A stretch of 63,359 nt of DNA, filler included, from Licmophora abbreviata (Eukaryota), in assembly GCA_900291995.1 (NCBI GenBank). It is 23 parts of 23 records of this genome, joined end to end, with 100 filler letters (N's around TTAATTAATTAA, not from the genome) between each part and the next. Parts side by side here need not be neighbours in the genome. Positions count along the whole stretch, not along the records: positions 16,813 to 17,868 come from OLMU01004970.1; positions 17,969 to 20,592 come from OLMU01004971.1; positions 20,693 to 23,304 come from OLMU01004972.1; positions 23,405 to 25,007 come from OLMU01004973.1; positions 25,108 to 27,086 come from OLMU01004975.1; positions 27,187 to 28,749 come from OLMU01004976.1; positions 28,850 to 30,090 come from OLMU01004978.1; positions 30,191 to 35,035 come from OLMU01004979.1; 15 more parts are not named here. One strand, 5' to 3'. The notes beneath the pieces are model-generated. The model saw only the letters and a list, made by a program, of their open reading frames with translations, was not told the DNA's origin and searched no databases. Positions 17,610 through 56,836 of this stretch are shown here, piece by piece. Every line of letters begins with the position of its first letter. Position 1 is the first letter of the stretch. The position numbers were made by a program, and so were the translations under genes.

Positions 17610-19023
17610 ATGACACGGCACGAAATCATCACGGGTCACGTGTTGTCCTTCACCGAAGACCCGTTCGGCAACGCCCCCGACGCCTCGGTCACATGGCACG
17701 AGGCGCTGCTGATCCGCGACGGAACCATCATTGCCACGGGCGATCTGGACACGCTGCGCCAACAGGCTCCCGGCGCAACGCTGACCCGCCATGACGGCTG
17801 CCTGATCTGCCCCGGCTTCATCGACGCGCATGTGCATTACCCCCAGACCGCGATCATCGCCAGCTGGGNNNNNNNNNNNNNNNNNNNNNNNNNNNNNNNN
17901 NNNNNNNNNNNNTTAATTAATTAANNNNNNNNNNNNNNNNNNNNNNNNNNNNNNNNNNNNNNNNNNNNACCCCCAGACCGCGATCATCGCCAGCTGGGGG
18001 GCACGGCTCATCGACTGGCTCGAACGCTACACCTTCCCCGAAGAGATGCGCTTTGCCGATCCCGCCCATGCCGCCACCATCGCCGACCGCTATCTCGACC
18101 TAACGCTCGCCCATGGCACCACCACCGTCTCCAGCTTCTGCACCTCGCACACCGCCAGCGTCGAGGCGTTCTTCACCGCAGCCCAGGCGCGCGGCTTGCG
18201 GGCGGCGGCGGGCAAGACCTGCATGGACCGCAACGCGCCGCCCGCCCTGTGCGACACCGCGCAATCCGCCCATGACGACAGCGCCGCGCTGATCGCCCGC
18301 TGGCATGGGGTCGACCGGCTGTGCTACGTCATCACCCCTCGCTTCGCCCCCACCTCAAGCGCTGATCAGCTGGCCGCGCTCGGGGCGCTCTGGGCCAATC
18401 ACCCCAACTGCCTGATGCAAACCCATCTGAGCGAACAGACCGAGGAAATCGCCTGGGTGGCCGAGCTTTTCCCCAAGGCCCGCGATTATCTCGATGTCTA
18501 TGAGACATTCGGCCTTCTGGGCGACCGCGCGCTTTTCGGCCATGCCATCCACCTCACCGCGCGTGAGGCCTCTCGCCTTTCGGAAAGCGGCGCCGCACTG
18601 ATCCATTGCCCCACCTCCAACAGCTTCATCGGCTCGGGGCTTTTCGATATCGGGCGCCGTCTGGCCGAAGGGCAGCGCATCGGACTGGCCACCGATACCG
18701 GCGGCGGCTCGAGCTTCTCGATGCTGCGCACGATGGCCGCCGCCTATGAGATCGGACAATTGACCGGCACCGTGCTGCATCCCGCGCAGCTTTTGTGGCT
18801 GGCCACCGCAGGCTCCGCCCGGGCGCTGCATATGGGCGACAGGATCGGCACGATCGCCCCGGGGATGGAGGCCGATCTGGTGGTGCTCGATCTCGCCTCC
18901 ACGCCCGCCATCGCCACGCGTCACGCGCGCGCAGACGACATCTGGGACGCGATCTTTCCCACGATCATGATGGGGGACGACAGAGCTGTAAAAGCCGTTT
19001 ATGTGATGGGACATCGCCTGTAA
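17610..19023 (+). CDS. guaD: Guanine deaminase; 3' end supplied by the integrated element
   Basis: PGFIDAHVHYPQ, LIDWLERYTFPEE, ITPRFAPTS, QTHLSE, TDTGGG, MMGDDR motifs; the gap is an overlap (17839-17868 repeated at 17969-17998). Confidence 0.92.
18961..18974 (+). repeat. attL core
   Basis: ACGATCATGATGGG, encodes TIMM(G) in guaD; contains the palindrome ATCATGAT. Confidence 0.88.
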
Positions 19024-19036
19024 CGACTATAACCAT

Positions 19037-19049
19037 CAAGTCATTGATA
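19037..19049 (-). promoter_or_regulatory. Candidate IHF binding site in attL
   Basis: Minus strand TATCAATGACTTG matches the WATCAANNNNTTR consensus; lies between core and candidate arm sites. Confidence 0.55.
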
Positions 19050-19125
19050 TAGGGTACTTTTTGAATCGCGCGCACGGAGACAGAGGGCGTCATGCAATCC
19101 AACCTAATCACAGCTGATGATATAT

Positions 19126-19168
19126 TTGGTTGCTTTTATGTTGCCACGAGCATGCCTGCTGTTGCCAT
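19126..19168 (+). repeat. Candidate integrase arm-type sites (left)
   Basis: TTGGTTGC (19126), TGTTGCCAC (19139), TGTTGCCAT (19160); same motif recurs near attR. Confidence 0.6.
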
Positions 19169-19309
19169 GAGAGCCGATACCCCTTATGTTCATTCTTGCA
19201 TCCAGAGCGACGCGGCCAAAGAGGGCGGCGTCCACCAACCCTCCTCGTAGGGTGGTCGGCCAAAAGGCAGATGCGCGGGGCGTCCCAGCCTCGAAGAGGA
19301 GAAACCACC

Positions 19310-19513
19310 ATGAGCAAAGCTGTGCAAATGCGCCGATGCATCTGCGGCGATGCATGCCGCGATCCCAAAGGTCCCATGCTGCCGATCGAAGCGTTCGCGG
19401 CGTCAGGAGGGCGCTGCGAGACCTGCTACCGCAAACGCCGCCGCAAGAAAAAATCGACGCGGGAAGAACGGCTTGCTAGGCTAGGTCACTTTTTAGCGGG
19501 GCTGCAGCAATGA
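19310..19513 (+). CDS. Small Cys-rich, basic protein (possible zinc finger)
   Basis: GAGGAGA RBS; CICGDAC...CETC then RKRRRKKK; ATGA overlap with next ORF. Confidence 0.55.
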   Translation: MSKAVQMRRCICGDACRDPKGPMLPIEAFAASGGRCETCYRKRRRKKKSTREERLARLGHFLAGLQQ

Positions 19514-19749
19514 CCCGGAACGTGGATCGTCCTGACCCGTGGGAGTTCGGACCTTGGGATGCCGTTGAACATTTCATGGCGGGGTCCGAGGACATCGTTA
19601 TGGCCGACGACATGACCATCGACGATGCAGCGGATCTGCTAGTGCAGTGCGGCGAGATCGAAGGCGCCTATGACATCCGCGTGTTCTACCATGAATGCCG
19701 CCTCGCGCTCACCAATAAGATCGAGGAGATGATCGATGCAACGTCGTGA
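19510..19749 (+). CDS. Small acidic hypothetical protein
   Basis: Overlaps upstream and downstream ORFs in a compact operon. Confidence 0.55.
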   Translation: MTRNVDRPDPWEFGPWDAVEHFMAGSEDIVMADDMTIDDAADLLVQCGEIEGAYDIRVFYHECRLALTNKIEEMIDATS

Positions 19750-20149
19750 TTTCCTGGTCGGCGCAAGCGCGCTCGCCTTGGCGCCTACCCCTCTTCTGGG
19801 CACTAAGCGCGTAGAGGCGCTTGGTTGCGTGCCCCCTGCGCCCCTCAAGTCGAGGCTTTCAATCCCCACAACCGGGGGCGTTTCCCTGCAACGGTTTATG
19901 GTGGAATACCAAGCGTTGAAGGAGCGCGCTGCAACTGCCAGACGGCACGAGGCCGCCTACCGCAGCCGCATCCCTTACGACGACACATCCCCCGCGTCGC
20001 TCGAGACCAACCCCGATTACAACTCGCCGTCCGCTCCACCACCTCGGCCGCCGGCACCGACCCTCTATGGTCCTGGCACCGAGACCAATGATCCGTTCGA
20101 GTTCTGGCACATGCGCCGCGACAACATAAAGAAACAGAACCATGGCTGA
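19736..20149 (+). CDS. Hypothetical protein with twin-arginine-like N-terminus
   Basis: GAGGAG RBS; MQRRDFLVGASALALAP; overlaps the integrase start. Confidence 0.5.
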   Translation: MQRRDFLVGASALALAPTPLLGTKRVEALGCVPPAPLKSRLSIPTTGGVSLQRFMVEYQALKERAATARRHEAAYRSRIPYDDTSPASLETNPDYNSPSAPPPRPPAPTLYGPGTETNDPFEFWHMRRDNIKKQNHG

Positions 20150-21587
20150 TCAACGTAATTTCACCAAAGCATACCTGCTCGGCCTGTCCAAGAAGGAGCC
20201 TGGGTTCCTTGCCAAGGACACTGGGTTTAACGGTACCCTCGGGGCGCGCGTCGCCAAGGCCCGCCAAGTGTCGCTATTCGTGGGCTGGCGTCAGGGCAGC
20301 AAGCAGCGCAAGAAGGTCCTCGGTACCGTGAAGGACCTGCTCGAGCTGGACGGCCTGACAGTCGACGATGTGCGTGAGCGCGCACGCGCGGTCATTCGCA
20401 TGTCAAAGGAAGGCCCCCAAGACGATGGTGCCCGGGCAAGGATTACAATCGCTGTTCTGGGCAAGGAGTACGTCGAAGGGCGCATGTCGGGCACGATCAA
20501 AACGCCGTATGCGGACGGTGGTAGAGCCGCGCGCCTGGCTATCAAGAGGGCGGTCGCGGTGTGGGGCGATCGGCCTGTGGCATCGCTGAGGANNNNNNNN
20601 NNNNNNNNNNNNNNNNNNNNNNNNNNNNNNNNNNNNTTAATTAATTAANNNNNNNNNNNNNNNNNNNNNNNNNNNNNNNNNNNNNNNNNNNNGCCTGTGG
20701 CATCGCTGAGGATGAAGGACGGCAGCGCGCTGTTGAACCAGGTTGTCAAGGACGCCGTCGCAACAGCCAAGCGCGAGAAGCGCAGGCTGGGCGCGAAGTA
20801 TCCAGGCCACGAGGCTGCCAAGAGCGCCCGCGCCCTGATCAAGCCCATGCTTGTCTGGCTGGCCGACGAGCTACCAGAGGTTCGCACTGAGCTGTTCAAG
20901 CAGTTCACTGCGAGGTCGAACGGCCCTCATCGCGGCGTGATGAGCAAGGACGAGCGCATTCTTTTCTTCCGCGCCCTCAACATCTTCGAGAAGCCGCAGA
21001 GCAACCGCACAGGCCGCCGTCACGACGTCAGCAAGGACACCTGCGACATCCTTCGCCTAACCTATCTCTGCGCCGCTCGAAAGTCAGACTGGGTGCAGGC
21101 TCAGTGGCGGGATGTATCGCTCGACGACGGGACCTGGGTGCGCCCCGACCACAAGCGCAAGCAGGGTGAAGAACACCGGCAGATTTTGACGCAGGACGTG
21201 ATCGCAATCCTTGAGGGGGTCAGGAGCCGGCGCGAGCAAAAGTACAAGCGCCCCGTCGAGGGTGAAGACTATATTTTTCCGTCGGTCAGCAAGACTGGAA
21301 AGCCGCACCGCTCAGACCTCTGGAGCGCCTTCCAAACGATCATGGACATCGCGGGGATCAATGAGGACAAGGCCGAGGCACAGCGGATCACGCCACACTG
21401 CCTGCGCGCCTCTAGGATCACCGAATGGGTCGATGAGCACGGCTGGAGCTTTGAGAAAGTTGGGCTGGTGATGGGCAACACGGAGCAGGTGGTGAGAGAC
21501 GTCTACTACCGCCCGCGGCACAAAGTGGAGGCCGTACGCGAAACGGTCGAAGTCGCCGGCGACGCAGCGCTGCTGCAGGGACTGTGA
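20142..21587 (+). CDS. Tyrosine recombinase/integrase with N-terminal arm-binding domain
   Basis: N-term DTG..LGARV..SLFVGWRQGSKQRKKVLG resembles P4-type arm-binding domain; catalytic R (CAARKSD), HCLR, Y (VYY); the two parts overlap across the gap (GCCTGTGGCATCGCTGAGGA duplicated). Confidence 0.85.
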
Positions 21588-21782
21588 ACGCATAGGCGAT
21601 CACACGGGCACGCGCGAAGATCGACGTCGTGGCTGCCCGGCCCCACAGAACCAATGTACTGATCCGGGTCAAGCACTCAGCTTTCCGGCGAGTTGACCAG
21701 GCGCGTTTTCGACGCTGTCATTGGAGCAAGGTTCGGGTTATTCCAATGTAAAACCGAAGAAACGAATGAACGGGGATGCAGC

Positions 21783-24318
21783 ATGGCCATCAAAAAAAGC
21801 GATATCTACCGGTCCCTCTGGGAAAGCTGCGACCAGCTCCGGGGCGGCATGGATGCCTCGCTTTATAAAGATTACATCCTCACTCTCTTGTTCGTGAAAT
21901 ACGTGTCCGACCGAGCCGGTCAGCCTGATGCGCTGATCGAGGTGCCGCGCGGGGCGTCGTTCGATGACATGAAGGCCCTGCGTGGGTCCAAGGATATCGG
22001 CGAGGGGATAGATACGATCATCGCCCGCATCGCAGAGGAAAATGACCTCAGCGGCGTGATCGACCGGGCATTCTTCAACGACGCCGAGAAATTCGGGCGC
22101 GGCACCAAAATGATCAACACCCTCACAGCGTTGATCAACATCTTCAGCCGGGAAGAGCTGAACTTTTCCAAGAACCGGGCCGATGGCGACGATATTCTGG
22201 GCGATGCTTATGAATACCTGATGCGGAACTTCGCGACAGAGTCGGGCAAGTCCAAGGGCCAGTTCTACACGCCTGCCGAGGTCTCCCGGATCGTGGCAAC
22301 CGTGGCGGGGGTCAGCCGGGCCACCAGCCCCCAGCAATCCGTCTATGACCCGACATGCGGCTCGGGTTCGCTTCTTCTAAAAGCCGCCGAAACCGCCCAT
22401 GTACCGATCACCATCTTCGGGCAGGAGATGGACATTGCCACCCGTGGCCTCGCCCGCATGAACATGATCATGCACAACCGGGCCACCGCCGAAATCGCCC
22501 AGGGCGACGTGATCGCAGAGCCGCATTTTCTGGCCAATGCCACCACGCTTCAGACCTTCGATTTCGTCGTCGCAAACCCGCCTTTCTCGGCCAAGGCCTG
22601 GGCCTCGGGTCTGACCGAAGACACCAAGTTCGACCGCTTCACAGATGGCGAACCCCCGGCCAAAAACGGGGATTTCGCTTTTTTGCTGCATATCCTTGCC
22701 TCGATGAAGGCCACCGGATCCGGTGCGGTCATCCTGCCCCATGGCGTGTTGTTTCGGGGCAATGCCGAGGCCCGCTTGCGTGAGAAGATCCTGAAACGGG
22801 GCTACATCAAGGGCATCATCGGCCTGCCTGCCAACCTGTTCTATGGCACGGGCATCCCGGCCTCCATCATCGTGCTGGATAAATCGCAGGCGCAGGAAAA
22901 CCGCCCTGTGTTCATGATCGACGCCTCCAAGGGCTTCATCAAGGACGGCAACAAGAACCGCCTGCGGGAACGCGATATTCACAAGATCACCGATGCCTTC
23001 ACCAAGGCGCAGGAAATCCCCGGCTATTCCCGCCTTGTCCCCTTTGCCGAAATCACCCGCAACGACTTCAACCTGAATATCCCCCGTTACATCGACGGGT
23101 CCGCCCCCGAAGACCTGCAAGACATTACCGCCCATCTGCATGGCGGCGTGCCAGAGCGTGACATCGATGCCTTGGCCGAATTCTGGGATGTCATGCCCAC
23201 CCTGCGGGCCACGCTATTCGGCCCCAATCCCCGTTCGGGCTATGCCGATCCGCTGGTTGCCCCCGATCAGGTGCGCAGCACCATCCGAAACCATCCCGAT
23301 TTCGNNNNNNNNNNNNNNNNNNNNNNNNNNNNNNNNNNNNNNNNNNNNTTAATTAATTAANNNNNNNNNNNNNNNNNNNNNNNNNNNNNNNNNNNNNNNN
23401 NNNNCGGCCTACCGCAGCCAGATCACCGATATCCTGAACGGCTGGATTGCCCAGAACACGCCCCATCTGACCGGCATCACCCAAGGCGATCATCCCAAGG
23501 CCCTGATCGACACCATTGCCGAGGATATGCTGACCCGCTTCGCCACCGCCCCCTTGGTCGATAAATACGAGGCCTATCAGCGCCTGATGTCCTATTGGTC
23601 AACCACCATGCAGGATGATGTCTTCATCATCGCGGGCGGGGGCTGGTTGGCTGCCCGTGATCTGCGAGAGGCCCGCAAGGAAGTGGCGGACGGCAAAACC
23701 AAATGGTTGGAAGAGGGCGATCTGACGGTTGGCAAAACCCGCCTTGTCGCCGATGTCATCCCGCCCGCCCTGATCACGGCGCGGTTCTTCCCGGAATTGA
23801 AGGATGCCCTGGAGACCGCCACCGCACGGGCCGAAGAACTGGGCCGCGAGATCGAGGAACTGGCTGAGGAACACGGGGCCGAGGGCGGGCTGTTGGCCGA
23901 TGCCCTGACCGATACCGGCAAACTGACCGCCGCATCGGTGAAAACCCGCGAGAAATCGGGCGAGGCGGATGCCGAGGAATACCCCCTGCTGAAACAGGCC
24001 GCGAAACTGATCGCGGCAGAGGCGGCGGCGAAAAAGGCGGCGAAAGAGGCCGAGGCAGAACTGACCGCCGCCGTGTTCAAGGCATACCCGGAACTGACCG
24101 AGGGCGACATCCGCACCCTTGTGGTGCAGGATAAATGGATCACCGACATCACAGCGGCGATCGGGGCCGAGGTAGAGGCGCGCACCGAAAGCCTGACCGC
24201 CCGCGTGCGGGTGCTGACTGAACGCTATGGCCAGACCCTGCCGCAGATCATGGACGATCTGGCGGGGCTAGAGGCGCGGGTGGCCACGCATCTGGCGGCG
24301 ATGGGGGTGGCGGGATGA
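21783..24318 (+). CDS. hsdM: Type I restriction-modification methyltransferase subunit (gap inside)
   Basis: GQFYTP, YDPTCGSGSLL, NPPF, LPHGVLFRG motifs. Confidence 0.93.
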
Positions 24319-25007
24319 ATCTGCCTTCAAGCTGGTCACACCAGCGATTGGATAGCATTGCGAGTCTTTCGCGTGGAAAATTCAGCGCAAGGCCAAGAAA
24401 TGATCCACGTTTTTTCGGTGGCGATATTCCCTTTGTTCAGACGGGAGATGTTCGCAACGCTCATGTTTATTTGCGAGATTTTACGCAGACCCTGAACTGG
24501 GAAGGCCTCAAGGTTAGCCGAGTCTTTCCAAAAGGAACGATGTTATTCACCATTGCGGCGAATATTGGCGATCTAGCTTTTCTCTCATTTGACGCGGCTT
24601 GTCCTGATAGTTTGGTGGCAATCGAACCAAAACAAGGCACCGACGCAGTTTGGTTGTTCTATCAGCTTGGGGCATTCAAGGCTGACTTTGAGGCCGCGGC
24701 AACGCAGAACGCACAACTGAATATCAATCTTGAGAAACTCAACCCCTTCAAAATCCCTGCCCCCCCCCTCCATGAACAACATGCCATTGCCTCCGCTTTA
24801 TCGGATGCGGATGGGGTGGTGGCGGGGTTGGAGCGGGTGATCGCGAAGAAGCGCCTGATCAAACAGGGGGCGATGCAAGACCTCCTCACCGCCCGCCGCC
24901 GCCTCCCGGGCTTCTCGGGGGAGTGGGAAGACATTCCCCTTGGTATAATTGGCCCATTCGTCGGGGGCGGAACCCCTAGCATGGCGCGGCCAGATTATTG
25001 GAAAGAT
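24315..25007 (+). CDS. hsdS: Type I RM specificity subunit, partial
   Basis: GDIPFVQTGD TRD, PPLHEQHAIASALSD..KQGAMQDLLT conserved helix, start of second TRD GGGTPS. Confidence 0.9.
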
Positions 25008-25087
25008 NNNNNNNNNNNNNNNNNNNNNNNNNNNNNNNNNNNNNNNNNNNNTTAATTAATTAANNNNNNNNNNNNNNNNNNNNNNNN

Positions 25088-27086
25088 NNNNNNNNNNNNN
25101 NNNNNNNGTCGTCCCTGGTGCATAAAATTCGGCCGCCGCGAAGAGGATGAGATGGGCGCCATGATCGCCGAGATCCAACGCGGCCAGATCGGTGCGCCGG
25201 TGGGCGAGTTTTTCGTGTTCATCGACGAGGCGCATAGGACGCAATCAGGCAAGCTCGCCCGTGCGATGCGGATGATTCTGCCGAATGCGGTGTTCTTCGG
25301 GTTTACAGGAACGCCCTTGTTGAAAACGGATAAACAAACCTCGCTTGAGACGTTCGGGCCATATATCGGCAAGCCCTACCGTTTCAACGAGGCGGTCGAG
25401 GATGAGGTGGTGCTGGATTTGCGCTATGAGGCACGGGATATCGACCAGCGCATCAGCTCACCCACCAAGATTGACGAATGGTTCGAGGCCAAGACCAAAG
25501 GGCTGACCCCTGTGGCCAAGGCAACCCTGAAACAACGCTGGGGCACCTTGCAGCGGGTGTTGTCGTCCAAGGATCGGCTGGAGCAGATCGCCAATGACAT
25601 CATCATGGACATGGCGACAAAGCCGCGTCTGGCGTCCGGTCGCGGCAACGCGATGCTGGTGGCGGGGTCTATCCCCGAGGCCTGCCGGTTTTTCGAGATC
25701 TTCCGCAATTCCGGGTCTGAGCTGTCTGGCAAGTGCGCCATCGTCACGTCCTACCAGCGCAATGCGTCCGAGTTGACTGGCGAAGAGGCCGGGATGGGCG
25801 AGACGGAAAAACAATATGTCTACCGCGTTTATGACCGGTTGATGACTGATCTGGGCACGGATGAAGAGGCTTACGAGGCCGAGGCCCTGCGCAAATTCCG
25901 CAAGGAACCGGCGCAGATGAAACTGCTGATCGTGGTCAGCCGCTTGCTGACCGGCTTTGATGCCCCCACGGCCACATACATCTACATCGACAAACAGATG
26001 CGGGATCACGGGCTGTTCCAGGCGATCTGTAGGGTCAACCGTTTGGACGGGGAGGACAAGGATTACGGCTATGTCGTGGATTACAAGGACCTCTTCAAGA
26101 ATATCGAGGCGGCAGTGGATGATTACACCTCCGAAGCGTTCGATGCCTTTGACGCCGAGGATGTCGAGGGGCTGATCTCGAACCGTGCCGAAAAGGCCGG
26201 GGTTGACCTATTCACCGCACGAGATGCCTGGTTCGGTCTGCTGGATCCTGTGGAGCAGCCCAAAGGGGACGACCAGATCTTCGCCTATTTCTCCAGCCCC
26301 CATGGTTGGGAGAAAGATCCGGAGGCCGAGGAAAAAGCCCGGCGGCGTCAGGCGCTTTATAAATTGGCGGGCGCCTATGCCCGAGCCTTTGCGTCGGTGG
26401 CCGAAGACCCTGCGGCCAGTGGCGTGAATGACCTGCAGCTTGCCCAATACCGCGGTGAGGTCGAGAGGGCCCTTTCCATCAGGGATGCCGTGCGGTTGCA
26501 CAGTGGTGACGCCGTGGACATGAAACAGTTCGAACCTGCCATGCGCCATCTGATCGACAGCTATATCAAGGCGGACGGGTCCGAGGTGATTTCGCATCTC
26601 GACGACATCAGCCTGATTGACCTTGTGGCCAGCAAGGGGGCCTCAGTCGAGGATGGGCTACCCAATGGTTTGAAGGGCAATCGGGAGAATGTAGCCGAGG
26701 CAATCGAGAACAATGTCCGCAGGTTGATCATTGATGAAACTCCGGTGAACCCGAAATTTTATGAGCGGATATCCGAGTTGTTGACGGACCTCGTCAAAAA
26801 ACGGAAAGAGGACGCGCTCGCCTATGCCGAGTATCTCGAAAAGATCGCGGAGTTGGTCAGGGCTGCAAAGGCAGGCCACGGAGGTGACTATCCGGCAACC
26901 ATGACCACACCTGGACGGAAGGCATTGTACGATAACCTCGGTCAGAATGAAGCGCGGGCACAGTCAGTGGACCAGGCGATCCGTGAAACCGCCCAGACGG
27001 GCTGGCGTGGAAACAAGATGAAGGAGCGGATGATCCGGCGAAAGCTGTCGGACCTGTTTGAAGACGAGGACGCCGTCGATCAGATC
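25088..27086 (+). CDS. hsdR: Type I RM restriction subunit, partial
   Basis: DEAHR, GFTGTP, LLTGFDAP, QAICRVNR helicase motifs. Confidence 0.92.
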
Positions 27087-27186
27087 NNNNNNNNNNNNNN
27101 NNNNNNNNNNNNNNNNNNNNNNNNNNNNNNTTAATTAATTAANNNNNNNNNNNNNNNNNNNNNNNNNNNNNNNNNNNNNNNNNNNN

Positions 27187-27661
27187 CCAACAAGCCCAGG
27201 TCCGAGCAGGAAAGATAAGTCTTGAAGGCACAGACCGGATCACCATGACCGTCCCGCGCGACGCCACCCGATCCGAAAAAGCGCGTTGGATGTCCGCGTG
27301 GTATAGAGCAGAACTCCGAGACAGAGCGGCGCCCAGGGTGTCGAAATGGGCCGATCGGTTAAAAGTCGAAGAACCCAGATGGGGCATTCGTGCGATGAAC
27401 ACGAAATGGGGATCCTGTAACCCGGACACCGGGCGGCTCTGGGTTAACCTTGATCTGGTCAAGAAACCCTTGGTCTGCCTTGATTACGTGATCCTTCACG
27501 AGATGAGCCATTTCGTGTCACGTCGGCATGACGACGTTTTCTTGGCAGTGCTTGATCGACACATGCCGGGCTGGCGGCAAGTGCGCGCGGATTTGAACAA
27601 GCTCCCCCTTACTGCGCCAGTTGGTTCGAAACTGACCCGTGACAAAAATTCGGATATCTAG
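27187..27661 (+). CDS. M48/YgjP (DUF45) family metallopeptidase, partial
   Basis: MNTKWGSC and DYVILHEMSH (HExxH); position directly after hsdR. Confidence 0.85.
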
Positions 27662-43356: not shown

Positions 43357-43366
43357 GGAGGCGGAC

Positions 43367-44245: not shown

Positions 44246-44255
44246 GGGGAAGATC

Positions 44256-45692: not shown

Positions 45693-45695
45693 CCA

Positions 45696-48238: not shown

Positions 48239-49698
48239 CACAGCGTCTCCTTGAAGATGCGCCCGCCCTTCATGACCAGGCGCAGGTTCGTTTCGGGATC
48301 GGCGAGGAAGTCCAGATCGGAGGCCGGGTCGCCATCCCAAACGAGAATATCCGCCAGCGCACCCTCGGCGATCACGCCGAGCTTGCCGGGATAGGGGGAC
48401 CGCTCGCCAGACATTTCCAGCAGTCGGCCGGCATCGCCTGTGGCCATGCGCAAAGCATCGAACGTCGACATGAAACGCGCTAATTTGCTAAGTTGGCGGC
48501 CCTGCGTGGCCGCGCCGGTCGGGTTGAACAGAACATCCGTGCCGAAGGCCATGTTCACGCCTTCGGCGCGGCCGGACTCAAAGGCCCGAATTGTGCCTTG
48601 GGCAACTTGCTGCTGCTTTGCGCGGCTTCTTGGGTCGGAATATTGGTTCGCGTCCTCGTCGGCAAGGAAGGGCTGAATGCTCCACCAGGCATCGGCCTCG
48701 GCCATGGCCTTGATGGTCGCCTCATCGGCCAGTTGTCCGTGCTCGATGGATCGTACACCGGCTTCTAGACAGCGCATGATGCCGGTGGGCGTGTAGACAT
48801 GCGCGCAGACATAAGTGCCCCAGTCGGCCGCGGCGTCTACTGCTGCGCGCATCTCGTCCAATGTGTATTGTGCGGTATCCAGCGGATCATAGGGCGAGGC
48901 CACACCGCCACCGGCCATGATCTTGATCTGGCTCGCACCGCGCATCAATTGTTCGCGGGTTCGGCGCAAAACTTCGGCCCGCCCGTCCGCAATGGCCGCG
49001 ACGCCTGCGCGCTCGGTATAATCCAGCGGTTCGCCCGATGCCTTTGGCAGAGCTGTCGTCATGCGGAAGTCACCATGGCCCGAAGTCTGCGACAACATGG
49101 CCCCTGACGGAAAGATGCGCGGTCCGGTCACGGCACCCTGATCCACCGCCATCTTCAGGCCGAAGACCGGCCCGCCCGTGTCGCGAACCGTGGTGAAACC
49201 ACGCATGAGCGTGGCCCCTGCCTCGCGGCCCGCCATGAGGTGGACCCAACCGATATCCTGCGTCAGTGCTGCGACCTGACTTATCCCGACCAAGGTGGCA
49301 TGCCAGTGGCAATCTATCAGCCCCGGGGTTACGGCGCGTCCGCCGCAGTCGATGATGTCGGCGTCCTCCGCTCCCGTCCCGGTGGCTGGCATCGCGACGA
49401 TGCGGCCCGCCTCGACAAGAATATCACGGCCTGTCTGCATTTCGGGCGTGGTGCCGTCAAAATAGCGCAGGTTCGTCAGCACCGTCGTCCGGCCCGGGGT
49501 CTGCGCCCGAAGATCGTTAGGCGCCAACCCAAAACCGGCGAACATGCCCACGACAGCCGACATGCCACCAAGCATCCTGCGCCGCGAAATGTCGGCCTCT
49601 ATTCGCTGCATGGCGGCCTGTGTCGCGGGCGCCCCGCATAGGCATGGGTTTATCGGCTCGATGCCGGCCTCAATGCTTTCGATACATGACAAACACAT
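48238..49698 (-). CDS. Metal-dependent amidohydrolase (Xaa-Pro dipeptidase-like subfamily) with Tat-like signal
   Basis: PGLIDCHWH, GFTTVRD, SQTSGHGD, KIMAGGG, SIEHG, FGTD; SRRRMLGG signal. Confidence 0.85.
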   Translation of the reverse strand: MCLSCIESIEAGIEPINPCLCGAPATQAAMQRIEADISRRRMLGGMSAVVGMFAGFGLAPNDLRAQTPGRTTVLTNLRYFDGTTPEMQTGRDILVEAGRIVAMPATGTGAEDADIIDCGGRAVTPGLIDCHWHATLVGISQVAALTQDIGWVHLMAGREAGATLMRGFTTVRDTGGPVFGLKMAVDQGAVTGPRIFPSGAMLSQTSGHGDFRMTTALPKASGEPLDYTERAGVAAIADGRAEVLRRTREQLMRGASQIKIMAGGGVASPYDPLDTAQYTLDEMRAAVDAAADWGTYVCAHVYTPTGIMRCLEAGVRSIEHGQLADEATIKAMAEADAWWSIQPFLADEDANQYSDPRSRAKQQQVAQGTIRAFESGRAEGVNMAFGTDVLFNPTGAATQGRQLSKLARFMSTFDALRMATGDAGRLLEMSGERSPYPGKLGVIAEGALADILVWDGDPASDLDFLADPETNLRLVMKGGRIFKETL

Positions 49699-49858
49699 AA
49701 AACAGGCCTCCAAAAATGTTTCCGGCCCAGCCGAAATTTCAATGTAGTCAGTTTTAGGTTGCTTGACGTCATAGGCAACCAGATTGCGTGTTTGATTTCA
49801 GGAAATGAACTTGGGGAATGTGCTTTGATCGCTCCAGTGTCGGTCCGGTTCAGCCTTA

Positions 49859-51532
49859 CTAGAGGCCGTTGGAACAACCTATCTGAAAGCCATTGTCGCA
49901 ATGCGCCATGAGTTTTTCGGTGTCCGACGGCGACCAGTTTTCGGGATCGGTCACTTCGACCCAAGGCGCGATGTAATCTTGCGCGTAATAGGCATGGCCA
50001 TGTCCTGACGGTGCGCCAAAGGACAACGCCATGTCCAGCGCGAGTTGAAACTGCGTTACAACAGGCACGAATATAAAATGATCGGTCATGTCGGCAGCCG
50101 GTGGATCCTGCATCCAAGGCGGCGCGCGCCACAGTGAATAGGGATCGTAGAATACGACCGGGTCGCTCGAATACTGCAGGAAGACGATGCGCATTGGCCC
50201 CCACGAAGCCTCGGCCTCCGAGGCATCTGCCGTATGCGATGCATAGCGCACCAACGATCCGTCCCCAATCCTTGGCAGAACCCACGGGCTACCCGGCGCC
50301 CGTTGTCTCTGGACATAGTTCCAGAAAGCCGAAGGGAAGGGTGGCCCGGCCCAGAACGCGCCGTCGATCGGATCGTCCAGCAAGCGAAACAGGTTGGTTG
50401 CATACATCGACGACCATGCCCCGAGGCTGAGCCCATGCACGTAAAGACGCGGCCGGGCCTCCGGTGGCAGCGTCTTCCAGTAGCCATGTAAAGCCTCCTG
50501 CAAGGCGGTCGCCTGCTCCAGCCCGGTCCGGGTCTCGAGGATGAGGGCAAGGGGTGACTGAAGATAGGAATACTGCGCGGCGACTGTCGCGATGTCGCCG
50601 CCATGCATGTATTCGACCGGGTCATGCGATCCCGGGTCCATCCAGCCCGTCCCCGTCGGGCTGGCCACGATCAGCACCGCGCGGTCAAATGCCCCTTGGC
50701 GCTTCAACTCATCCAGCGCAAGCTGTGCCCGCTCCTGCGGCGTCTCGCCGTTGGCCCGCCCCACATATACCCGGATCGGGTCCAGCGCGGGCCGGCCTGT
50801 CAAGGCCGAGATCGCTGCGGCGTCGGGTCCTGAAGTGATGAAATCCCGCCCCGGTGCTCCAATGGCGGCCCAGTCGATCAAAGAGTGGGCGCTGCCCGTC
50901 ATCCGAGGGTCCGAAGGCGCTGGTGGAGAATTGTCGAAAAGCGCCTGCGCGGCTTCATAGCTTTCATCAAGTCCGGAAACGACGCGGTCAAATAGTCCAT
51001 CGCGCGTCACGAGGAAAAGGAGCGCTACAATGGTGACAAAGCCGAGCACATTGGCGCGGCGCGGCGGCATCACGCGGTAAAACCGTGCCCGGACCAAGCG
51101 GAAAAGGGCCGCGACGAGGCGCCCGATACCGAAGGCAACGGCGAAAACGGCGAGGGCCAGTATAAGGATCTGCGATAGATGCAGGGCGTCCGCAGGCTCC
51201 AACCCCATCTTTTGTCTCAGATCGTTCTGCCACGTCAGGCTGGACCCGAGCATCCAAAGGAACAGGGTAAGAGTGGCGATGGCGAAGATCCATTTGAATA
51301 TCCGCGCCAGTCGGCCCGACAGGCGGGGCAAATCTGCGGCGCGCCACAAAAGGCCCAATATCCGCCCAACCAGATAACCGAGTGCGGTGACCAGCCCACC
51401 GAGTATGCCCTGCACAAGCGGGCCGCGCGGCACCAGCGAGGGTGTCAGCGACGCGGCGAAAAACCCCAGCCCCAGCAAGAGGCTCGGCACACATACAGTT
51501 CCGATGATGCGAAAGATTGCCGCCGGTTTCAC
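49859..51532 (-). CDS. Membrane-anchored alpha/beta hydrolase (Abhydrolase_9-like)
   Basis: SLTPSLVPR, PIRVYVG, PTGTGW, QYSYLQS, GLSLG nucleophile motif, GHGH. Confidence 0.82.
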   Translation of the reverse strand: MKPAAIFRIIGTVCVPSLLLGLGFFAASLTPSLVPRGPLVQGILGGLVTALGYLVGRILGLLWRAADLPRLSGRLARIFKWIFAIATLTLFLWMLGSSLTWQNDLRQKMGLEPADALHLSQILILALAVFAVAFGIGRLVAALFRLVRARFYRVMPPRRANVLGFVTIVALLFLVTRDGLFDRVVSGLDESYEAAQALFDNSPPAPSDPRMTGSAHSLIDWAAIGAPGRDFITSGPDAAAISALTGRPALDPIRVYVGRANGETPQERAQLALDELKRQGAFDRAVLIVASPTGTGWMDPGSHDPVEYMHGGDIATVAAQYSYLQSPLALILETRTGLEQATALQEALHGYWKTLPPEARPRLYVHGLSLGAWSSMYATNLFRLLDDPIDGAFWAGPPFPSAFWNYVQRQRAPGSPWVLPRIGDGSLVRYASHTADASEAEASWGPMRIVFLQYSSDPVVFYDPYSLWRAPPWMQDPPAADMTDHFIFVPVVTQFQLALDMALSFGAPSGHGHAYYAQDYIAPWVEVTDPENWSPSDTEKLMAHCDNGFQIGCSNGL

Positions 51533-51967
51533 AGGCCCTCCTTGACGGTTTCTCTGGTTTGGAATTGTGCCGCCCGTAATTCGCGACGATTTTACAGGCC
51601 CCGTCAATCCATTGTGGTGTCTTCCTGGTGAACCCGAGGCTTTCATCGAGCCGCATCGACCAACATTTCGAACGACTTGGGGAATGGGCTGAAGGGACCA
51701 AAAAAACTACGGCAGGAAATGTTAGAGTTCTTGCAACAAGCGGAGTTAAAAGACTGTTCGTCGACGGAAGTACCCCGATGGACAAGTTAATTACAACTTC
51801 TTGACCATAGTGAGCACGTTGCGAGATGCAATCGGTACGTTAGCTGTAGATGGGTGGGTACCTTTATCTGCGGCTGGCAGATGGATAGCCGAGCGATACT
51901 GGCTTGCGTTCATAAGCCATCTGGATGGTAGCTTTGCCCCGCGTTGCTGACCCTAACCTTCCAAAAA

Positions 51968-52051
51968 TGCTGCATGCTCGACGAATGGCTGGTCTGGTGA
52001 AGCTGCATCGCAGCGCCAAGTAGGGCGATGAATGGCAGGTTTGGGCCGTTC
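51968..52051 (+). repeat. Module-flanking imperfect direct repeat, left copy
   Basis: TGCTGCA..GGTCT..GCTGCATCGCAGCG..AATGGCAGGTTTGGGCCGTTC; last block matches 56460-56480 at 20/21. Confidence 0.75.
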
Positions 52052-52271
52052 ATGTCGAATAGGCAGACCAAGGTCAGTTCGATGGCGCAGCGACACCGAG
52101 GCTGGCGTCCACCCATTTTGGCCGAGGTCGCAAATTGCACCGATGACCAAATTCGAGATGATACGGTCCTTTCCGAATCTTGGACCGTATGGACCAGTGT
52201 GTCTCGTTGGAGTAGGGCGGTTACAAGATCGCCGATGGCGTACCTCAAAAGGGTTGGTGGCAATCAGCGTT

Positions 52272-53132
52272 TCAAAAGAAGCTATCTAGATCAAAATCGC
52301 GCTTTCGAAGAGCTGCACGCAAACGTTCGAGGCCCCGTTCGCGCAGCTGACGCACCCTTTCCCTCGAAATTCCATATCGCATGCCAAGCGCCTCAAGTGT
52401 CGCCGGAGGGTCGCTCACTTGTGTCGCAACAATGATGCTTCGCTCGCGCGCGGGCAAAGTCTGCAGAACGTCCATCAGGACGCGGCGCAATCCTTGTCGC
52501 TGCAGGCTTTTCAAGGCAACAGGCTCTTCGAGGCTCTCCGGATCGACCAGAAGCGCCATACGATCCGCACCATCCTCCTCCAGAACAGGCACATTCAACG
52601 AGCTATCTCTGACGTTGACCTGTTGGCGCAAGTCCGCCGCCTTCTGTAGATCTACTCCCAACGTGGCAGCAAGTTTCTTGTCCGCATCAGCCGGATCCAT
52701 GTCGGCATCCGCTTCCATCTCCGCGTTCAGAGCCGCGATTTGTCTGGCCGCGGCCCGCGAGCGTGCAGAATTCGGACGCCGGACGACAGATGTGTTCGCC
52801 CGCGCATATTCTTGAACCTCCGCCCGTACCCACCACACCGCATAGGTCGCGAACCGAATGCTGCGCTCCGGGTCGAAACGGTCGACGGCCTTTATCAGCC
52901 CTATCTGGGCCTGTTGTATCAGATCCAGATCAACCTCCCCCGACCCTCGACGGAAGCGCTTTGCGATAGAGGCCGCCAATGGTGCGAATGCGTTGATTAA
53001 TCGATCGCGTGCTTGCTGGTCGCCGTGCTGCTGCCAGGCGCAAATCAATGCCCGCTCTTCTTCAGCCGATAACATACCCGGCGTGCGGACGCGCCGGGAT
53101 CCTCGAATAAGGTTTGTGACAGGTTTGTTCAT
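52272..53132 (-). CDS. RNA polymerase sigma factor, RpoH (sigma-32)-like
   Basis: LSAEEERAL, DLIQQAQIGLIKAVDRFDPERSIRFATYAVWWVRA (region 2), TLEALG..YGISRERVRQL (region 4). Confidence 0.88.
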   Translation of the reverse strand: MNKPVTNLIRGSRRVRTPGMLSAEEERALICAWQQHGDQQARDRLINAFAPLAASIAKRFRRGSGEVDLDLIQQAQIGLIKAVDRFDPERSIRFATYAVWWVRAEVQEYARANTSVVRRPNSARSRAAARQIAALNAEMEADADMDPADADKKLAATLGVDLQKAADLRQQVNVRDSSLNVPVLEEDGADRMALLVDPESLEEPVALKSLQRQGLRRVLMDVLQTLPARERSIIVATQVSDPPATLEALGMRYGISRERVRQLRERGLERLRAALRKRDFDLDSFF

Positions 53133-53217
53133 GGCCAAGACCTATTTGATTTTGATTCGATACTACTGCTTGGATTTGAAGATTGTCAAAGTGGTTTCGA
53201 TTCACTACCAAATGCGC

Positions 53218-53817
53218 ATGACCGACGAACCCCAAACACCAGACCGAATCGCAGAACTGCTCATCCATGTCGGACGCGCGGCGCGGAGCGAAGATGCAGG
53301 CTCAGAGTTGACGGCTGCACAGTGGACCTGTCTACGCTTTTTGGCCCGTGCCAATGGCAGCACGCGCACTCCGTCGTCTTTCGCCAACTTCCAGGCGACC
53401 ACGCGCGGTACGGCATCGCAGATCGTCAAGTCGCTGGAGCGCAAGGGGCTTGTTGTGGGAACGCGATCCGACCGGGATCGCCGCAGCGTGTCGTTTGGCC
53501 TAACGGACAAAGGGCAGGCAATGCTCGCGACTGATCCTTTGCGAGACCTTATTGACGTGATCGACGGTCTTGCGGACACCCAACGCGACCTGTTCCTGAC
53601 AACACTGTCCCGTCTGGCCTCACAGTTGGCCATGAGAAGGAATGTCCCCGCGTTTGGGACTTGCCAAGATTGCAGCCATTTCGAGCGCTCCAGCGGCAAA
53701 GCCTATTGCGCCTGCATGGCGGAAGAGTTGGCAGCCGTTGACCTTCCAAAGCTTTGCGCGAGCTATACCCCAACACGCTGGCCACTTAGCCAAGGAGACG
53801 CAAATGACGCAGACTGA
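53218..53817 (+). CDS. MarR family regulator with Cys-rich C-terminal extension
   Basis: LTAAQW, DRDRRSVSFGLTDKG wing; CQDC..CAC..C tail. Confidence 0.85.
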   Translation: MTDEPQTPDRIAELLIHVGRAARSEDAGSELTAAQWTCLRFLARANGSTRTPSSFANFQATTRGTASQIVKSLERKGLVVGTRSDRDRRSVSFGLTDKGQAMLATDPLRDLIDVIDGLADTQRDLFLTTLSRLASQLAMRRNVPAFGTCQDCSHFERSSGKAYCACMAEELAAVDLPKLCASYTPTRWPLSQGDANDAD

Positions 53818-55017
53818 ACAGCCCGCTAGCACGATGATGATTGCAATAAGCAGCGGCAAGGGCGGTGTGGGCAAATCCACGGTGACCGCAAATATCGCGG
53901 TGGCCATGGCCGATGCTGGCTTGCGCGTTGGCGTGGTGGATGCGGATATATATGGGCCGTCGATCCCGCGCATGCTGGGCATAACGTCAGGAAAGCCTGC
54001 GATGTCGCCAGAGCAGAAGATCATCCCCGCCGAGGCCCATGGCGTGAAAGTGATGTCCATGGCCATGTTGTCGGACGATGACAGCCCGGCAATCCTGCGC
54101 GGGCCCATGGTGACGAAATACCTGCAGATGTTCATTCGTCAGGTTGAGTGGGGCGCGCTGGACGTTCTGCTCCTGGACCTGCCGCCGGGCACCGNNNNNN
54201 NNNNNNNNNNNNNNNNNNNNNNNNNNNNNNNNNNNNNNTTAATTAATTAANNNNNNNNNNNNNNNNNNNNNNNNNNNNNNNNNNNNNNNNNNNNGTCAGC
54301 ACGCCTCAGGACGTCAGCCTGAAGATCGCGCGGCGCGGCGTGCGGATGATGGAGCAGGTCAATGTGCCTATCCTCGGCGTGATCGAGAACATGAGCGGTT
54401 TCACCTGCCCGGATTGCGGAACGGTCACGCATATCTTTCACGAGGGCGGCGGCGAGGCGATCGCGCAAGATCTGGGTGTGGATTTTCTCGGCAAGGTGCC
54501 TCTTGACCCAACGGTGGTTGATTGCGGCGATGACGGTCGCCCACTGGTGCGCGCCGTGCCGGACAGCCCGGCGGCTGCGGCCTACCGGAGGATTGCTGCT
54601 ACGTTGGCCGGGACCAACGGCGACTTCGCGGGAATCGCGGCGCCCTTCGCATGGAAGCTTGCCGATGGCTCGGGGAAGCCGCCCCCTGCACCGATGACTG
54701 AGGGAGGCCCGACTGACCGCATCGCCGCATTGGACCATGCGGACGGCGCGCTACTTCTGCGGTGGGCTGACGGCAGAGAACAGCGCTTGACGGATCGCGA
54801 CCTACGCCTCGCCTGCCAATGTGCGCAATGCCGCGACGAAATGAGCGGCAAGCGGCTTCTGGACCCGGAAAACGTGCCGCTGGATATCAGCCTGACGCGT
54901 GTCTGGAGCGTCGGAAACTACGCGCTTGGCATGGCGTTCAGCGACGGCCACGACACGGGTATCTACACGTTCAAAGCGCTCCATACCCTCGCCGGGACGG
55001 AGTTGGAGGATGTCTGA
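53804..55017 (+). CDS. Mrp/ApbC/NBP35 Fe-S carrier ATPase fused to DUF971 (gap inside)
   Basis: SSGKGGVGKST, DADIYGPS, DLPPGT, ENMS..CPDC; C-term LRLACQCAQC..VGNYAL..FSDGHDTGIY. Confidence 0.88.
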
Positions 55018-56245
55018 TCCAACGACGCGGCGCCGCATACGTGCGCAGGCCTCGGCCAGCGACCCACATGTCATGGGCTTCGTACTCGAGACACCACTCA
55101 AAGAGGGATCGTCTTGTCGCATCGAAGCGAGCAGCAATGCCCCGCTTGGGCACGCACTTTTTGCGCTCCATGGTATTGATCGGGTCGAAGTGAGCGACGC
55201 GACGATCTGGGTCAAGAAGCAAACTGAAGCAAGCTGGGAAACGTTGAAACCTGGCATCGCTGGGGCTATCCGCGTTGTACTCGACAGCAGCGAAGCACCA
55301 CTCGGCGCGTGCGCGCCCGAGGATACTACTCCAGATAAAATCCTTGGCGAGGCGGTTGAGAAACTGCTGAACCAGCAGGTCAACCCCGCAGTCGCTGCCC
55401 ATGGCGGGCATATCTCGGCGGAAAAGGTTGAGGGAGGCACCATATATTTGCGTATGTCCGGGGGCTGTCAGGGCTGCGCGGCATCCGCGGCCACGCTTCG
55501 CGAAGGGGTGGAGCGCATGTTGCGCGCCGCCCTGCCACAAATCGTGCAGATCGTTGATGTCACTGACCATGAGGCGGGGGAAACCCCCTTCTACGCCCGA
55601 AATGATGGCCCCTCACCAGTCTTGAACCGCCCAATCCCGCAGGATGTCATCGGTTGGGAAGACGGTCAGGTTGTAGTCGACCCGGACTATTTGGCACCGA
55701 AGCTTGGTCTGAACCCGGATACGCTCCGCGCTGGTCTGCAAAGGGGGGACGTCGTCGGTGTAACAGAGACCGGTCAAGGCGATGATACAGGCAAGACGCG
55801 AGTGATTATTCACACCCCAACACGGGCATGGGCAGCCGAAATCGACGCAAGTGGTGCCGCCCGCGAAATTCCGCCTCCGCGTGTGGTGTCGTCGGCCCAC
55901 GCTCAGGAGGAAGCACTGTCTGATCGGGTCCGCGCCCATCTTGAAGGCCTTGCCGAAACAAAGCTTCCGATCACCTATGGCGCATTGGCGCGGGCCCTTG
56001 GGTTGTGGGCACCGGGCTCGATCGCGAAAATCACCAGGGCACTTGAAACCACAATGCGGGAGGACGCCGCAGAGGACCGCCCCTTTATCGCCGCCCGCGC
56101 CGTCAATCGCGGGCGCGACAAGTTGCCGGGAAAAGGCTATTTCGATCTCGCCCACGCCCTTTCACGGGGACCAAGACCCGGCGAGAACGACTCTGAGTCG
56201 CATGCCCGGGAACTCCGTCGCTTGAATGAGGTACTTGCCAGATAG
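55010..56245 (+). CDS. Multidomain Nfu/NifU-like Fe-S carrier protein
   Basis: Nfu N-terminal scaffold-like region, VNPAVAAHGG..GGCQGC NifU-C motif, then two further domains. Confidence 0.82.
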   Translation: MSDPTTRRRIRAQASASDPHVMGFVLETPLKEGSSCRIEASSNAPLGHALFALHGIDRVEVSDATIWVKKQTEASWETLKPGIAGAIRVVLDSSEAPLGACAPEDTTPDKILGEAVEKLLNQQVNPAVAAHGGHISAEKVEGGTIYLRMSGGCQGCAASAATLREGVERMLRAALPQIVQIVDVTDHEAGETPFYARNDGPSPVLNRPIPQDVIGWEDGQVVVDPDYLAPKLGLNPDTLRAGLQRGDVVGVTETGQGDDTGKTRVIIHTPTRAWAAEIDASGAAREIPPPRVVSSAHAQEEALSDRVRAHLEGLAETKLPITYGALARALGLWAPGSIAKITRALETTMREDAAEDRPFIAARAVNRGRDKLPGKGYFDLAHALSRGPRPGENDSESHARELRRLNEVLAR

Positions 56246-56405
56246 ACAACCAGTGATGCAGTCCATCGAATTTCGGGTGCCTAACTAAAACAGAAGTTTC
56301 GCATTATGACTGCTTCGGGGCTGATAGCAGTTCATGGCATCGGACCGATACGAAGGTAATATAGATTTGCTTTCTGCGAATTTTAGTGGATCAAGGGTTC
56401 GGCAG

Positions 56406-56480
56406 TGCTGCAAAAGTCCGGTCTAATGGGCCGCACCGCAGCGGTGGAATGGTATGGTCAATGGCCGGTTTGGGCCGTTC
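56406..56480 (+). repeat. Module-flanking imperfect direct repeat, right copy
   Basis: TGCTGCA..GGTCT..GCCGCACCGCAGCG..AATGGCCGGTTTGGGCCGTTC. Confidence 0.75.
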
Positions 56481-56675
56481 GCAACATTTATCGCCGCCAC
56501 GCGGGAGGTCCGGCACCTCCAAAACTCGTTCCTTTACACGATTTTTGGAGTTTCCGCTGTTGGTAGTAGAAGCTGCTGTTGAGTTTTGTGCCTATTTATA
56601 GGTCCTGAACCTAAAGCCCAATTGCTTGGTGAAATCCCCTGGATTCGGTCACGGTATTTCCTTTGCGTGGTGTTT

Positions 56676-56695
56676 TGTTGCCACTTGGTTGCCAC
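56676..56695 (+). repeat. Candidate integrase arm-type sites (right)
   Basis: Tandem TGTTGCCAC (56676) and GGTTGCCAC (56687), 11-bp period. Confidence 0.6.
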
Positions 56696-56764
56696 AGCCG
56701 CATGAGCACCCTACCCCACAACCCTTATTTCAAGGCATAAAACGTTATTTTAGCACCTATCACT

Positions 56765-56836
56765 ACGATCATGATGGGCGATGACCGCGCCATCCGCGAT
56801 CTGCGCATCATGGGCCAGCCCCTTCGCGCGGCCTGA
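56765..56836 (+). pseudogene. attR core plus displaced original 3' end of guaD
   Basis: ACGATCATGATGGG then host-like codons: TIMMGDDRAIRDLRIMGQPLRAA*. Confidence 0.88.

Follow-up and report, generated by a model that had tools for sequence, protein, structure and literature searches.

A genomic island of about 40 kb, very probably inserted site-specifically into the 3′ end of the guanine deaminase gene guaD of a Roseovarius-like bacterium

The window analysed here is the whole 63,359-nt stretch of DNA joined from 23 records of assembly GCA_900291995.1, deposited under Licmophora abbreviata. Its host is a Roseovarius-like marine bacterium, and its guanine deaminase gene guaD is 83-84% identical at the amino acid level to guaD of Roseovarius. 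We found that the window very probably carries a genomic island of about 40 kb with its own integrase, which has been inserted site-specifically in the 3′ end of guaD with restoration of the target gene. Here, we document the two junctions, the restoration of the target, the empty site as seen in a sister species and a near-identical strain, and the use of the same target by distant members of the integrase family. Judged by its predicted genes, the island represents a rare island family of Rhodobacteraceae with a backbone of an integrase, an open reading frame (ORF) with an RRxFL motif, an excisionase-like helix-turn-helix (HTH) protein, a DUF5906 primase and a terminase-large-subunit-like (TerL-like) protein, while the cargo is variable.

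A preliminary description of this DNA had placed one 14-mer at two positions, the left copy inside the 3′ end of guaD and the right copy ahead of an alternative guaD C-terminus, and all of this was borne out. The window has exactly two copies of the 14-mer ACGATCATGATGGG, at 18961-18974 and at 56765-56778, both on the + strand, and its expected count is 0.00 in 100 dinucleotide-preserving shuffles; a search of the window with a degenerate 20-mer allowing up to 3 mismatches gave no third copy of this core. The ORF that ends at 19023 is a true guanine deaminase, which passes the equivalog model NCBIfam TIGR02967 with 458.8 bits (cut-off 375.4; residues encoded by 17971-19023). The right core is followed in frame by TIMMGDDRAIRDLRIMGQPLRAA and a stop, the displaced native end of guaD. 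The element therefore has direct repeats at both of its ends, one of which is within the target gene. The features of the two junctions are as follows, where attL and attR are the left and right attachment sites.

17610..18960 (+): host-derived part of guaD (TIGR02967, Pfam Amidohydro_1; the start at 17610 is set from the frame, and the linker 17869-17968 lies inside)
18961..18974 (+): attL core, left-hand direct repeat of 14 bp, encoding T-I-M-M-G
18975..19023 (+): new 3′ end of guaD supplied by the island, GDDRAVKAVYVMGHRL and stop, GC content 0.49
19140..19168 (+): two GTTGCCAY motifs, which may be arm-type sites of the integrase
56677..56695 (+): two GTTGCCAC motifs, likewise putative arm-type sites
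56765..56778 (+): attR core, right-hand direct repeat of 14 bp
56779..56836 (+): original 3′ end of guaD, now displaced, GDDRAIRDLRIMGQPLRAA and stop, GC content 0.707
56956..57850 (-): host flank with genes for a CAP-domain protein and an inositol monophosphatase (Pfam)

The core encodes T-I-M-M-G within the conserved FPTIMMGDDRA motif of guaD, which is near-invariant; 65 of the 80 closest guaD loci have it, and the remaining 15 fall outside the motif pattern. The guaD frame is kept through the left core to the stop at 19023, and the tail after attL keeps the GDDRA-x-x-x-V consensus of the 65 native tails. Since the GC content of this tail is 0.49, compared to 0.674 for the guaD body and 0.707 for the tail after attR, the tail now on guaD is foreign and the native tail has been displaced. 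In addition, the stretch 56765-56798 (34 nt), which spans the right core and the start of the native tail, is 94% identical to the guaD tail of Roseovarius halotolerans. Of the eight GTTGCCAY motifs of the window, four cluster at the two cores, at distances under 200 nt and each on the + strand.

Both junctions stand clear of the places at which the window was joined. As a pseudomolecule, the window consists of 23 short contigs of 1.1-6.7 kb, joined in 22 places by identical artificial linkers of 100 nt with the form N44-TTAATTAATTAA-N44 (e.g., 2572-2671, 17869-17968 and 20593-20692), and any of its long-range features hangs on the contig order of the depositor; attL and attR each lie well within one contig. 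On contig 9 (17969-20592) are the guaD body with the left core and the short tail, and the N-terminal part of the integrase; contig 21 (54295-57851) has island DNA, the right core, the guaD tail and the CAP and inositol monophosphatase genes.

An empty guaD-CAP junction in relatives, which the preliminary description had proposed to look for, was found twice. In R. halotolerans (L003), the MgtE, guaD, CAP and inositol monophosphatase genes are contiguous, exactly as in the window minus the element (guaD ends at 11041, CAP is at 11146-11568 and the monophosphatase at 11647-11982). The second case is a Logan contig of read run X5, from a near-identical strain, which matches 18414-18981 with 2 differences; past 18981, its next 30 letters are identical to 56786-56815, a stretch that occurs once in the window. 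This contig is an unoccupied bacterial attachment site (attB), with the break at the core. On the occupied side, contig 9 was matched without difference in runs X1 and X3, in Logan contigs of 43,322 and 40,463 nt that pass from guaD through attL into the integrase and continue 39.9 and 38.3 kb past 20592, which speaks for ends contiguous with the island, a point raised in the preliminary description. The low-coverage run X23 gave one piece across attL.

The same strain comparison bears on whether the island can still move. It could be a fixed relic that entered guaD site-specifically and is no longer mobile, in which case the difference between the strains would reflect a single old gain or deletion. 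We regard this as unlikely. The relic reading agrees with the lack of an excision product in the Logan contigs, with the rarity of the family, in which each occurrence is in another species, and with the large metabolic cargo, which suggests domestication; it is opposed by an integrase ORF that is whole and keeps its catalytic residues, by 14-bp cores that are still identical, and by a strain with guaD 99+% identical over 568 nt that lacks the island exactly at the core, where a deletion would require the same site-specific precision.

The preliminary description had also placed a tyrosine integrase 1.2 kb inside the left end, and the integrase start at 20142 is 1.17 kb inside the left core. 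Its catalytic domain (20694-21587) matches PF00589 with 41.6 bits (cut-off 27.1), and the window integrase is 95% identical to the full-length 441-aa protein P0001. We built a profile (A1) from 17 members of the integrase family, in which R273, H379 and Y415 do not vary, K300 and R385 are kept in at least 90%, and TPHxLRASR is the consensus; P0001 has GN at the second His position. We take these residues, from general knowledge, to be the catalytic R...K...HxxR...Y set. Profile A1 matches the catalytic domain of XerD (chains 5dcf_A and 1a0p_A).

The integrase family is small, with 4 proteins in a collection of 5.8 billion clusters and 15 clusters at E<1e-30 among 1.84 billion representatives. 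Strong matches to A1 (E<1e-100) were counted in large genome samples in which 4 candidates were scored per genome, so that misses are possible. There were three among the 401 genomes of the family sample (G261, G312 and G184), one among 147 genomes of the genus of R. halotolerans (G439) and none among the 401 genomes of the class sample; thus, the integrase family was found in 4 of 548 Rhodobacteraceae species genomes. Further samples from the genera of G184 (6 genomes), G261 (1) and G312 (1) added nothing. Protein P0009, which is part of A1, is identical to the G261 integrase. As for the other alignments, the wide integrase alignment A2 was too divergent for scans, the close alignment A3 gave nothing in metagenome_contigs or viral_contigs, and alignment A4 gave nothing in viral_contigs and only contig L131 in metagenome_contigs.

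Five members of the integrase family have a readable context, and in three of them (the window, G184 and G439) the integrase lies at the same guaD codons. In G439, guaD (84% amino acid identity) runs through an 18-nt core into a new tail, and the integrase follows 0.75 kb on, at the contig end. Its contig C8 has an AT-rich end followed by CATCATGATGGGCGACGA, the native tail IMMGDDRAIRAVLVAGEHLNTALAA with its stop, which is near that of R. halotolerans, and the CAP and monophosphatase genes. In G184, there is a 55-nt overlap between the guaD contig and the integrase contig, the shared core has 21 nt, and contig C53 opens with this core, followed by the native tail, the CAP gene and the monophosphatase gene. 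The CAP and inositol monophosphatase genes thus stand directly 3′ of guaD in L003, past attR in G439 and past the native tail in G184. The attL arrangement of G184 is unbroken on the 226-kb metagenome contig L131 with an identical integrase, and L131 is not independent because it is identical to G184. The only other near-core match in G184 is inside fusA.

The contig ends of G184 were also informative as assembly behaviour. Contigs C27, C13 and C53 (L110, L108 and L123) meet at the borders of the 21-nt core: C27 stops there and C53 starts there, C13 overlaps C27 by 55 nt, and L131 passes attL without a break. A sequenced population with a mixture of occupied and empty sites would be expected to give such a pattern.

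Among the three integrases linked to guaD, identity is only 28-38%, and the deepest split in the tree of the family (100/99 support) runs between them; G261 and G312 are sisters of G439 (100/100 support). On the simplest reading of these five contexts, a small sample, guaD may be the older site and the G261/G312 pair may have switched to others. The G312 integrase, which is 70% identical to that of G261, adjoins the 3′ end of a GH116 glycosyl hydrolase gene (L107 464-4593). The last 54 positions of the catalytic-domain profile are unmatched in this gene, and a tRNA-Arg gene lies 70 nt beyond it; the GH116 gene may be a second protein-gene target of the integrase family.

The shared backbone was compared with G439, whose island is gap-free over 32.8 kb and has a size of at least 35.5 kb. 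The backbone genes have the same order and strand in the window and in the contiguous G439 contig, and this order includes small conserved ORFs listed between the primase and TerL-like genes of G439. The genes of the window island, in which the proteins were scanned with Pfam, NCBIfam, PADLOC and PHROGs, are as follows.

19736..20149 (+): small ORF that overlaps the integrase start and has a twin-arginine-like RRxFL motif
20142..21587 (+): tyrosine integrase of 441 aa (PF00589; linker 20593-20692 inside)
21693..27661 (+): type I restriction-modification genes hsdM, hsdS and hsdR, and a YgjP-like peptidase (hsdS and hsdR incomplete at gaps)
27994..28749 (-): TerL-like protein, C-terminal half (the N-terminal half is in a gap)
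29447..29728 (-): conserved backbone ORF, 37% identical to a 153-aa ORF of G439 in the same order
30192..33089 (-): primase-like replication protein, DUF5906 (PF19263, 5.7e-8)
33193..33816 (-): excisionase/AlpA-like HTH protein, candidate directionality factor
34610..46454 (.): cargo with a LacI regulator (-), TRAP transporter DctPQM, E1 alpha, E1 beta, E2 and E3 of a 2-oxoacid/acetoin-type dehydrogenase, an aldehyde dehydrogenase and a short-chain dehydrogenase (Pfam, NCBIfam)
47378..56245 (.): cargo with an ORF without assignment, an amidohydrolase, Abhydrolase_9, a sigma-32-like factor, MarR, Mrp/ApbC, and NifU-like and DUF6522 proteins (Pfam, NCBIfam)

The primase of the window is 41% identical over 923 aa to the G439 protein; its N-terminus has a weak Prim-Pol match (E 0.015, below the cut-off), and a search of PDB sequences with it gave no match. 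The HTH protein has a weak HTH_17 match (E 0.063) and is 41% identical to a 127-aa protein of G439 that matches PF12728 with 27.6 bits (cut-off 27) and the excisionase family phrog_66 at 3e-4. The TerL-like fragment of the window, which itself had no family match in Pfam or PHROGs, is 41% identical to residues 261-454 of a 478-aa protein of G439, and that protein matches PF03237 at 5e-11 and the terminase large subunit family phrog_2 at 6e-23 over residues 26-459. In G261, a full-length TerL-like protein is present with 42% identity. The TerL-like genes are at L139 2052-3488 (-) in G439, L106 2654-4090 (-) in G261 and 27994-28749 (-) in the window. The primase and the TerL-like protein are thus kept in G439 and G261 and partly in the window, so that a satellite-type set of integrase, replication and packaging genes is present. 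PADLOC and NCBIfam gave no matches on the backbone proteins. The cargo is wholly different between the islands, and that of G439 comprises amidases, transporters and a glutamate-mutase cluster. A link of the TerL-like protein to gene transfer agents was discarded, as BLAST shows no similarity between this protein and the other PF03237 protein encoded in G439 or G261.

The size of the island, which is that of a phage genome, and the terminase-large-subunit-like gene of the family would also suit a prophage, or else an integrative conjugative element, instead of an island that is not self-transmissible. This is highly improbable given the gene content, since no families of capsid, portal, tail, relaxase, coupling or type IV secretion proteins turned up in the 51 window ORFs or the 27 ORFs of the G439 island, and for 19 window proteins PHROGs returned integrase matches alone, and for 12 G439 backbone proteins only a terminase, a weak primase and an excisionase. 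It was also observed that the TerL-like protein is conserved in islands without capsid, portal or tail genes.

The preliminary description had given the element as 18961..56836, about 37.8 kb in length; its two ends stand, each junction being within a single contig, but the length is approximate. The core-to-core distance of 37.8 kb includes 12 linkers and unsequenced gaps, with 36,590 nt of real sequence between the cores, and the interior order is approximate as well because the window consists of 23 joined short contigs. Since hsdS, hsdR, YgjP, the TerL-like gene and E2 are truncated at gaps, several kb are missing, and the true size is about 40 kb or slightly more. Throughout the window, contig ends overlap at three joins only, 8/9 (30 nt, in guaD), 9/10 (20 nt, in the integrase) and 15/16 (20 nt, in the LacI gene). 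Other joins are supported by gene continuity: the PADLOC MTase_I profile has its positions 509-808 of 810 on contig 11, which gives a continuous HsdM across 10/11; the E3 gene is split across the gap at 17/18; and Mrp is split at 20/21, where the ParA profile runs to position 123 and resumes at 142. Joins 13/14/15 are supported by synteny with G439. The interior joins 11/12, 12/13, 16/17, 18/19 and 19/20 have operon logic or no support.

With so many joins, the contig order itself could mislead: the junctions could be real while some interior contigs, notably 17-19, come from another place, or two elements could have been conflated. We consider this improbable. Twenty-three contigs with artificial linkers leave room for such an error, as do the missing N-terminal half of the TerL-like gene and the E2 gene, which is cut at 41813 ahead of a contig that opens with an aldehyde dehydrogenase. 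These have to be set against the gene continuity at three joins and the synteny with G439 just described, the uniform GC of all segments (0.593 for the island and 0.584-0.617 in six sub-segments of 4-12 kb, with flanks of 0.645 and 0.648), the X1 and X3 contigs that run 39.9 and 38.3 kb past 20592, and the lack of a third att copy. Around the E2 break, the E2 gene at 40917-41813 has two lipoyl domains and breaks off where contig 16 ends, and 43292-44245 on contig 17 is a separate ORF with the 2-oxoacid acyltransferase catalytic domain only, downstream of the aldehyde dehydrogenase. Either about 0.8 kb was lost in the gap at 16/17 or the contig order is wrong there.

Several observations weigh against a mobile island at guaD with the content given above. 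Within the island, only joins 9/10 and 15/16 of the 12 have overlapping ends, joins 16/17, 18/19 and 19/20 follow the given contig order alone, and contig 17 does not take up the E2 gene that is broken off in contig 16. The window may itself derive from runs X1-X3, and in that case they would be evidence of contiguity and not of independence. No attP circle (the element's own attachment site rejoined) or restored attB was found in the island-bearing runs, for the one stretch searched and in Logan contigs, which drop rare variants. The terminase-like and HTH assignments lean on the G439 homologues, the window copies being truncated or below threshold, and the Mrp/NifU block could be a displaced core block instead of cargo. 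As to the target, two of the five integrase members (G261 and G312) lie away from guaD, an integrase of the family was found within 10 kb in none of the 80 closest guaD loci, and the core pattern ATCATGATGGGNGAYGAY, present in 269 of 401 family genomes, occurs in at least two copies in four (G184, G244, G143 and G138) with a true second core only in G184. The double core of G244 is a chance match in another gene, that of G143 is due to two overlapping contig ends, and in G138 both core matches lie within 200 nt of one small contig. From the counts of loci and cores, guaD islands are sporadic. The integrase family is not exclusively guaD-specific, and the earlier expectations that homologues would lie beside guaD and that guaD would define a Roseobacter island family hold in part: a shared backbone and three guaD-linked members (the window, G184 and G439) were found, but the family is rare and two of the five are elsewhere.

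We still favour a site-specifically inserted island, for which the following course is proposed. The tyrosine recombinase of the island would recombine attP on a circular form of the element with attB in guaD, where attB lies in the stretch coding for the invariant FPTIMMGDDRA, with the crossover within ACGATCATGATGGG. A surrogate guaD 3′ end would be carried beside attP; because the island brings this end, guaD reads through the core into a consensus-like 16-residue tail and stays intact, and the native tail is left as a fragment at the far end of the island. The island may still be able to excise by means of the integrase and the HTH protein, the latter as a putative directionality factor, the primase may replicate the excised circle, and the terminase-like protein would perhaps allow packaging that depends on a helper phage. 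A bolder proposal, which we offer tentatively and think doubtful as a whole, is that guaD islands make up a class of their own among the elements of roseobacters, with the size of a phage genome, a cargo and dependence on a helper, as a counterpart to the tycheposons. After excision and replication, they would be packaged by their own large terminase in the full-size capsid of a helper phage, with guaD as the ancestral site of the whole integrase family. As part of the same doubtful proposal, the use of guaD by integrases less than 30% identical would have persisted because the DNA at the crossover is near-invariant in Rhodobacteraceae.

Islands that enter and repair conserved protein genes are well known, so the mechanism is not new. 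The island GIsul2 reportedly has its site at guaA. SGI1 is an island at trmE, at the 3′ end of a conserved protein gene (PMC8409611), and GIsul2 belongs to the type of island that restores a conserved protein gene (PMC9376610). Both resemble the guaD island in having an integrase beside one end, short direct repeats, a target function kept by island sequence and variable cargo, but here the target is guaD, the integrase family is small and separate, and the hosts are Rhodobacteraceae. The backbone here has a primase and a terminase-like gene, whereas SGI1 has mobilisation genes. The islands of the dusA-specific integrases (Farrugia et al. 2015, PMC4482086) likewise link an integrase lineage to one conserved housekeeping gene in many species, with prophage or island passengers. 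The dusA islands insert at the 5′ end of the gene, unlike guaD islands, which insert at the 3′ end; there are more than 200 dusA cases and three guaD cases, and the guaD integrase family is also found at other sites, a comparison made by description.

Compared to the tycheposons of Prochlorococcus (Hackl et al., bioRxiv 10.1101/2020.12.28.424599), the guaD islands share a marine setting, cargo, a tyrosine recombinase, an excisionase, a primase/helicase and the lack of capsid or conjugation genes, and some tycheposons are PICI-like (PICI, phage-inducible chromosomal island) with a packaging gene. Tycheposons target tRNA genes, are 10-20 kb in size and carry a terS or capsid gene, whereas guaD islands target a protein gene, are at least 36 kb and carry a large-terminase-like gene; this comparison, too, is by description. 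P4-like and PICI satellites resemble the guaD islands in the integrase, the AlpA/excisionase-like HTH protein, the primase and the packaging-related gene, but the guaD island is three times their size (36.6 kb or more here, about 10-15 kb for the satellites). Capsid-remodelling or terS genes of the P4/PICI kind were not detected in the island.

The literature searched did not name guaD as an attachment site, which is in line with the preliminary description, where this attB was not recognised as a described one; the large island catalogues (TIGER/Islander), which may list guaD, were outside that search. A match to "guaD" in PMC11578063 was rejected, as it is an abbreviation for Guadeloupe. These catalogues hold 1.75 million mapped islands, 43.4% of which are in coding sequences (PMC12424338). 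Within the reach of the searches, novelty appears to lie in three points: guaD as the target, a very small integrase family with guaD as its site in at least three deep lineages, and a shared primase and terminase-like backbone with 20-25 kb of metabolic and defence cargo in roseobacters. Roseobacters are an ecologically important group. The sites give a precise attB/attP pair for genetic tools in Roseovarius and its relatives, the guaD 3′ end is a hot spot to check in strain comparisons, and the island raises the question of how a 40-kb element travels without conjugation or capsid genes.

Further observations were made on individual genes of the island. The RRxFL ORF has a weak match to Pfam TAT_signal (E 0.008, below the cut-off). 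An RRxFL ORF with an alanine-rich stretch and no family match lies directly upstream of the integrase and overlaps its start in all five family members (alignment A5), at 19736-20149 in the window, L108 8474-9022 (-), L133 12041-12487, L106 11403-11810 (-) and L107 1843-2100 (-), and three of the five have an N-terminal YxRQQARADKR motif. The restriction-modification block has Pfam matches to N6_Mtase, HsdM_N, Methylase_S, T1R_D3-like, SWI2_SNF2 and YgjP-like.

The GC content of the cargo at 47378..56245 is 0.587-0.593, like the rest of the island. Within it, the sigma-32-like/MarR/Mrp/NifU block (52807-55594) has a colinear homologue with 69-77% DNA identity in Roseovarius sp. PS-C2 (G002:C12:151354-154197), which lies about 190 kb from the guaD of that strain and has core genes with 79-87% identity on its flanks. 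A direct repeat of 21 nt, AATGGC[A/C]GGTTTGGGCCGTTC, is present towards the right end of the island at 52031-52051 and 56460-56480, 4.4 kb apart and identical at 20 of 21 positions, which may be due to chance.

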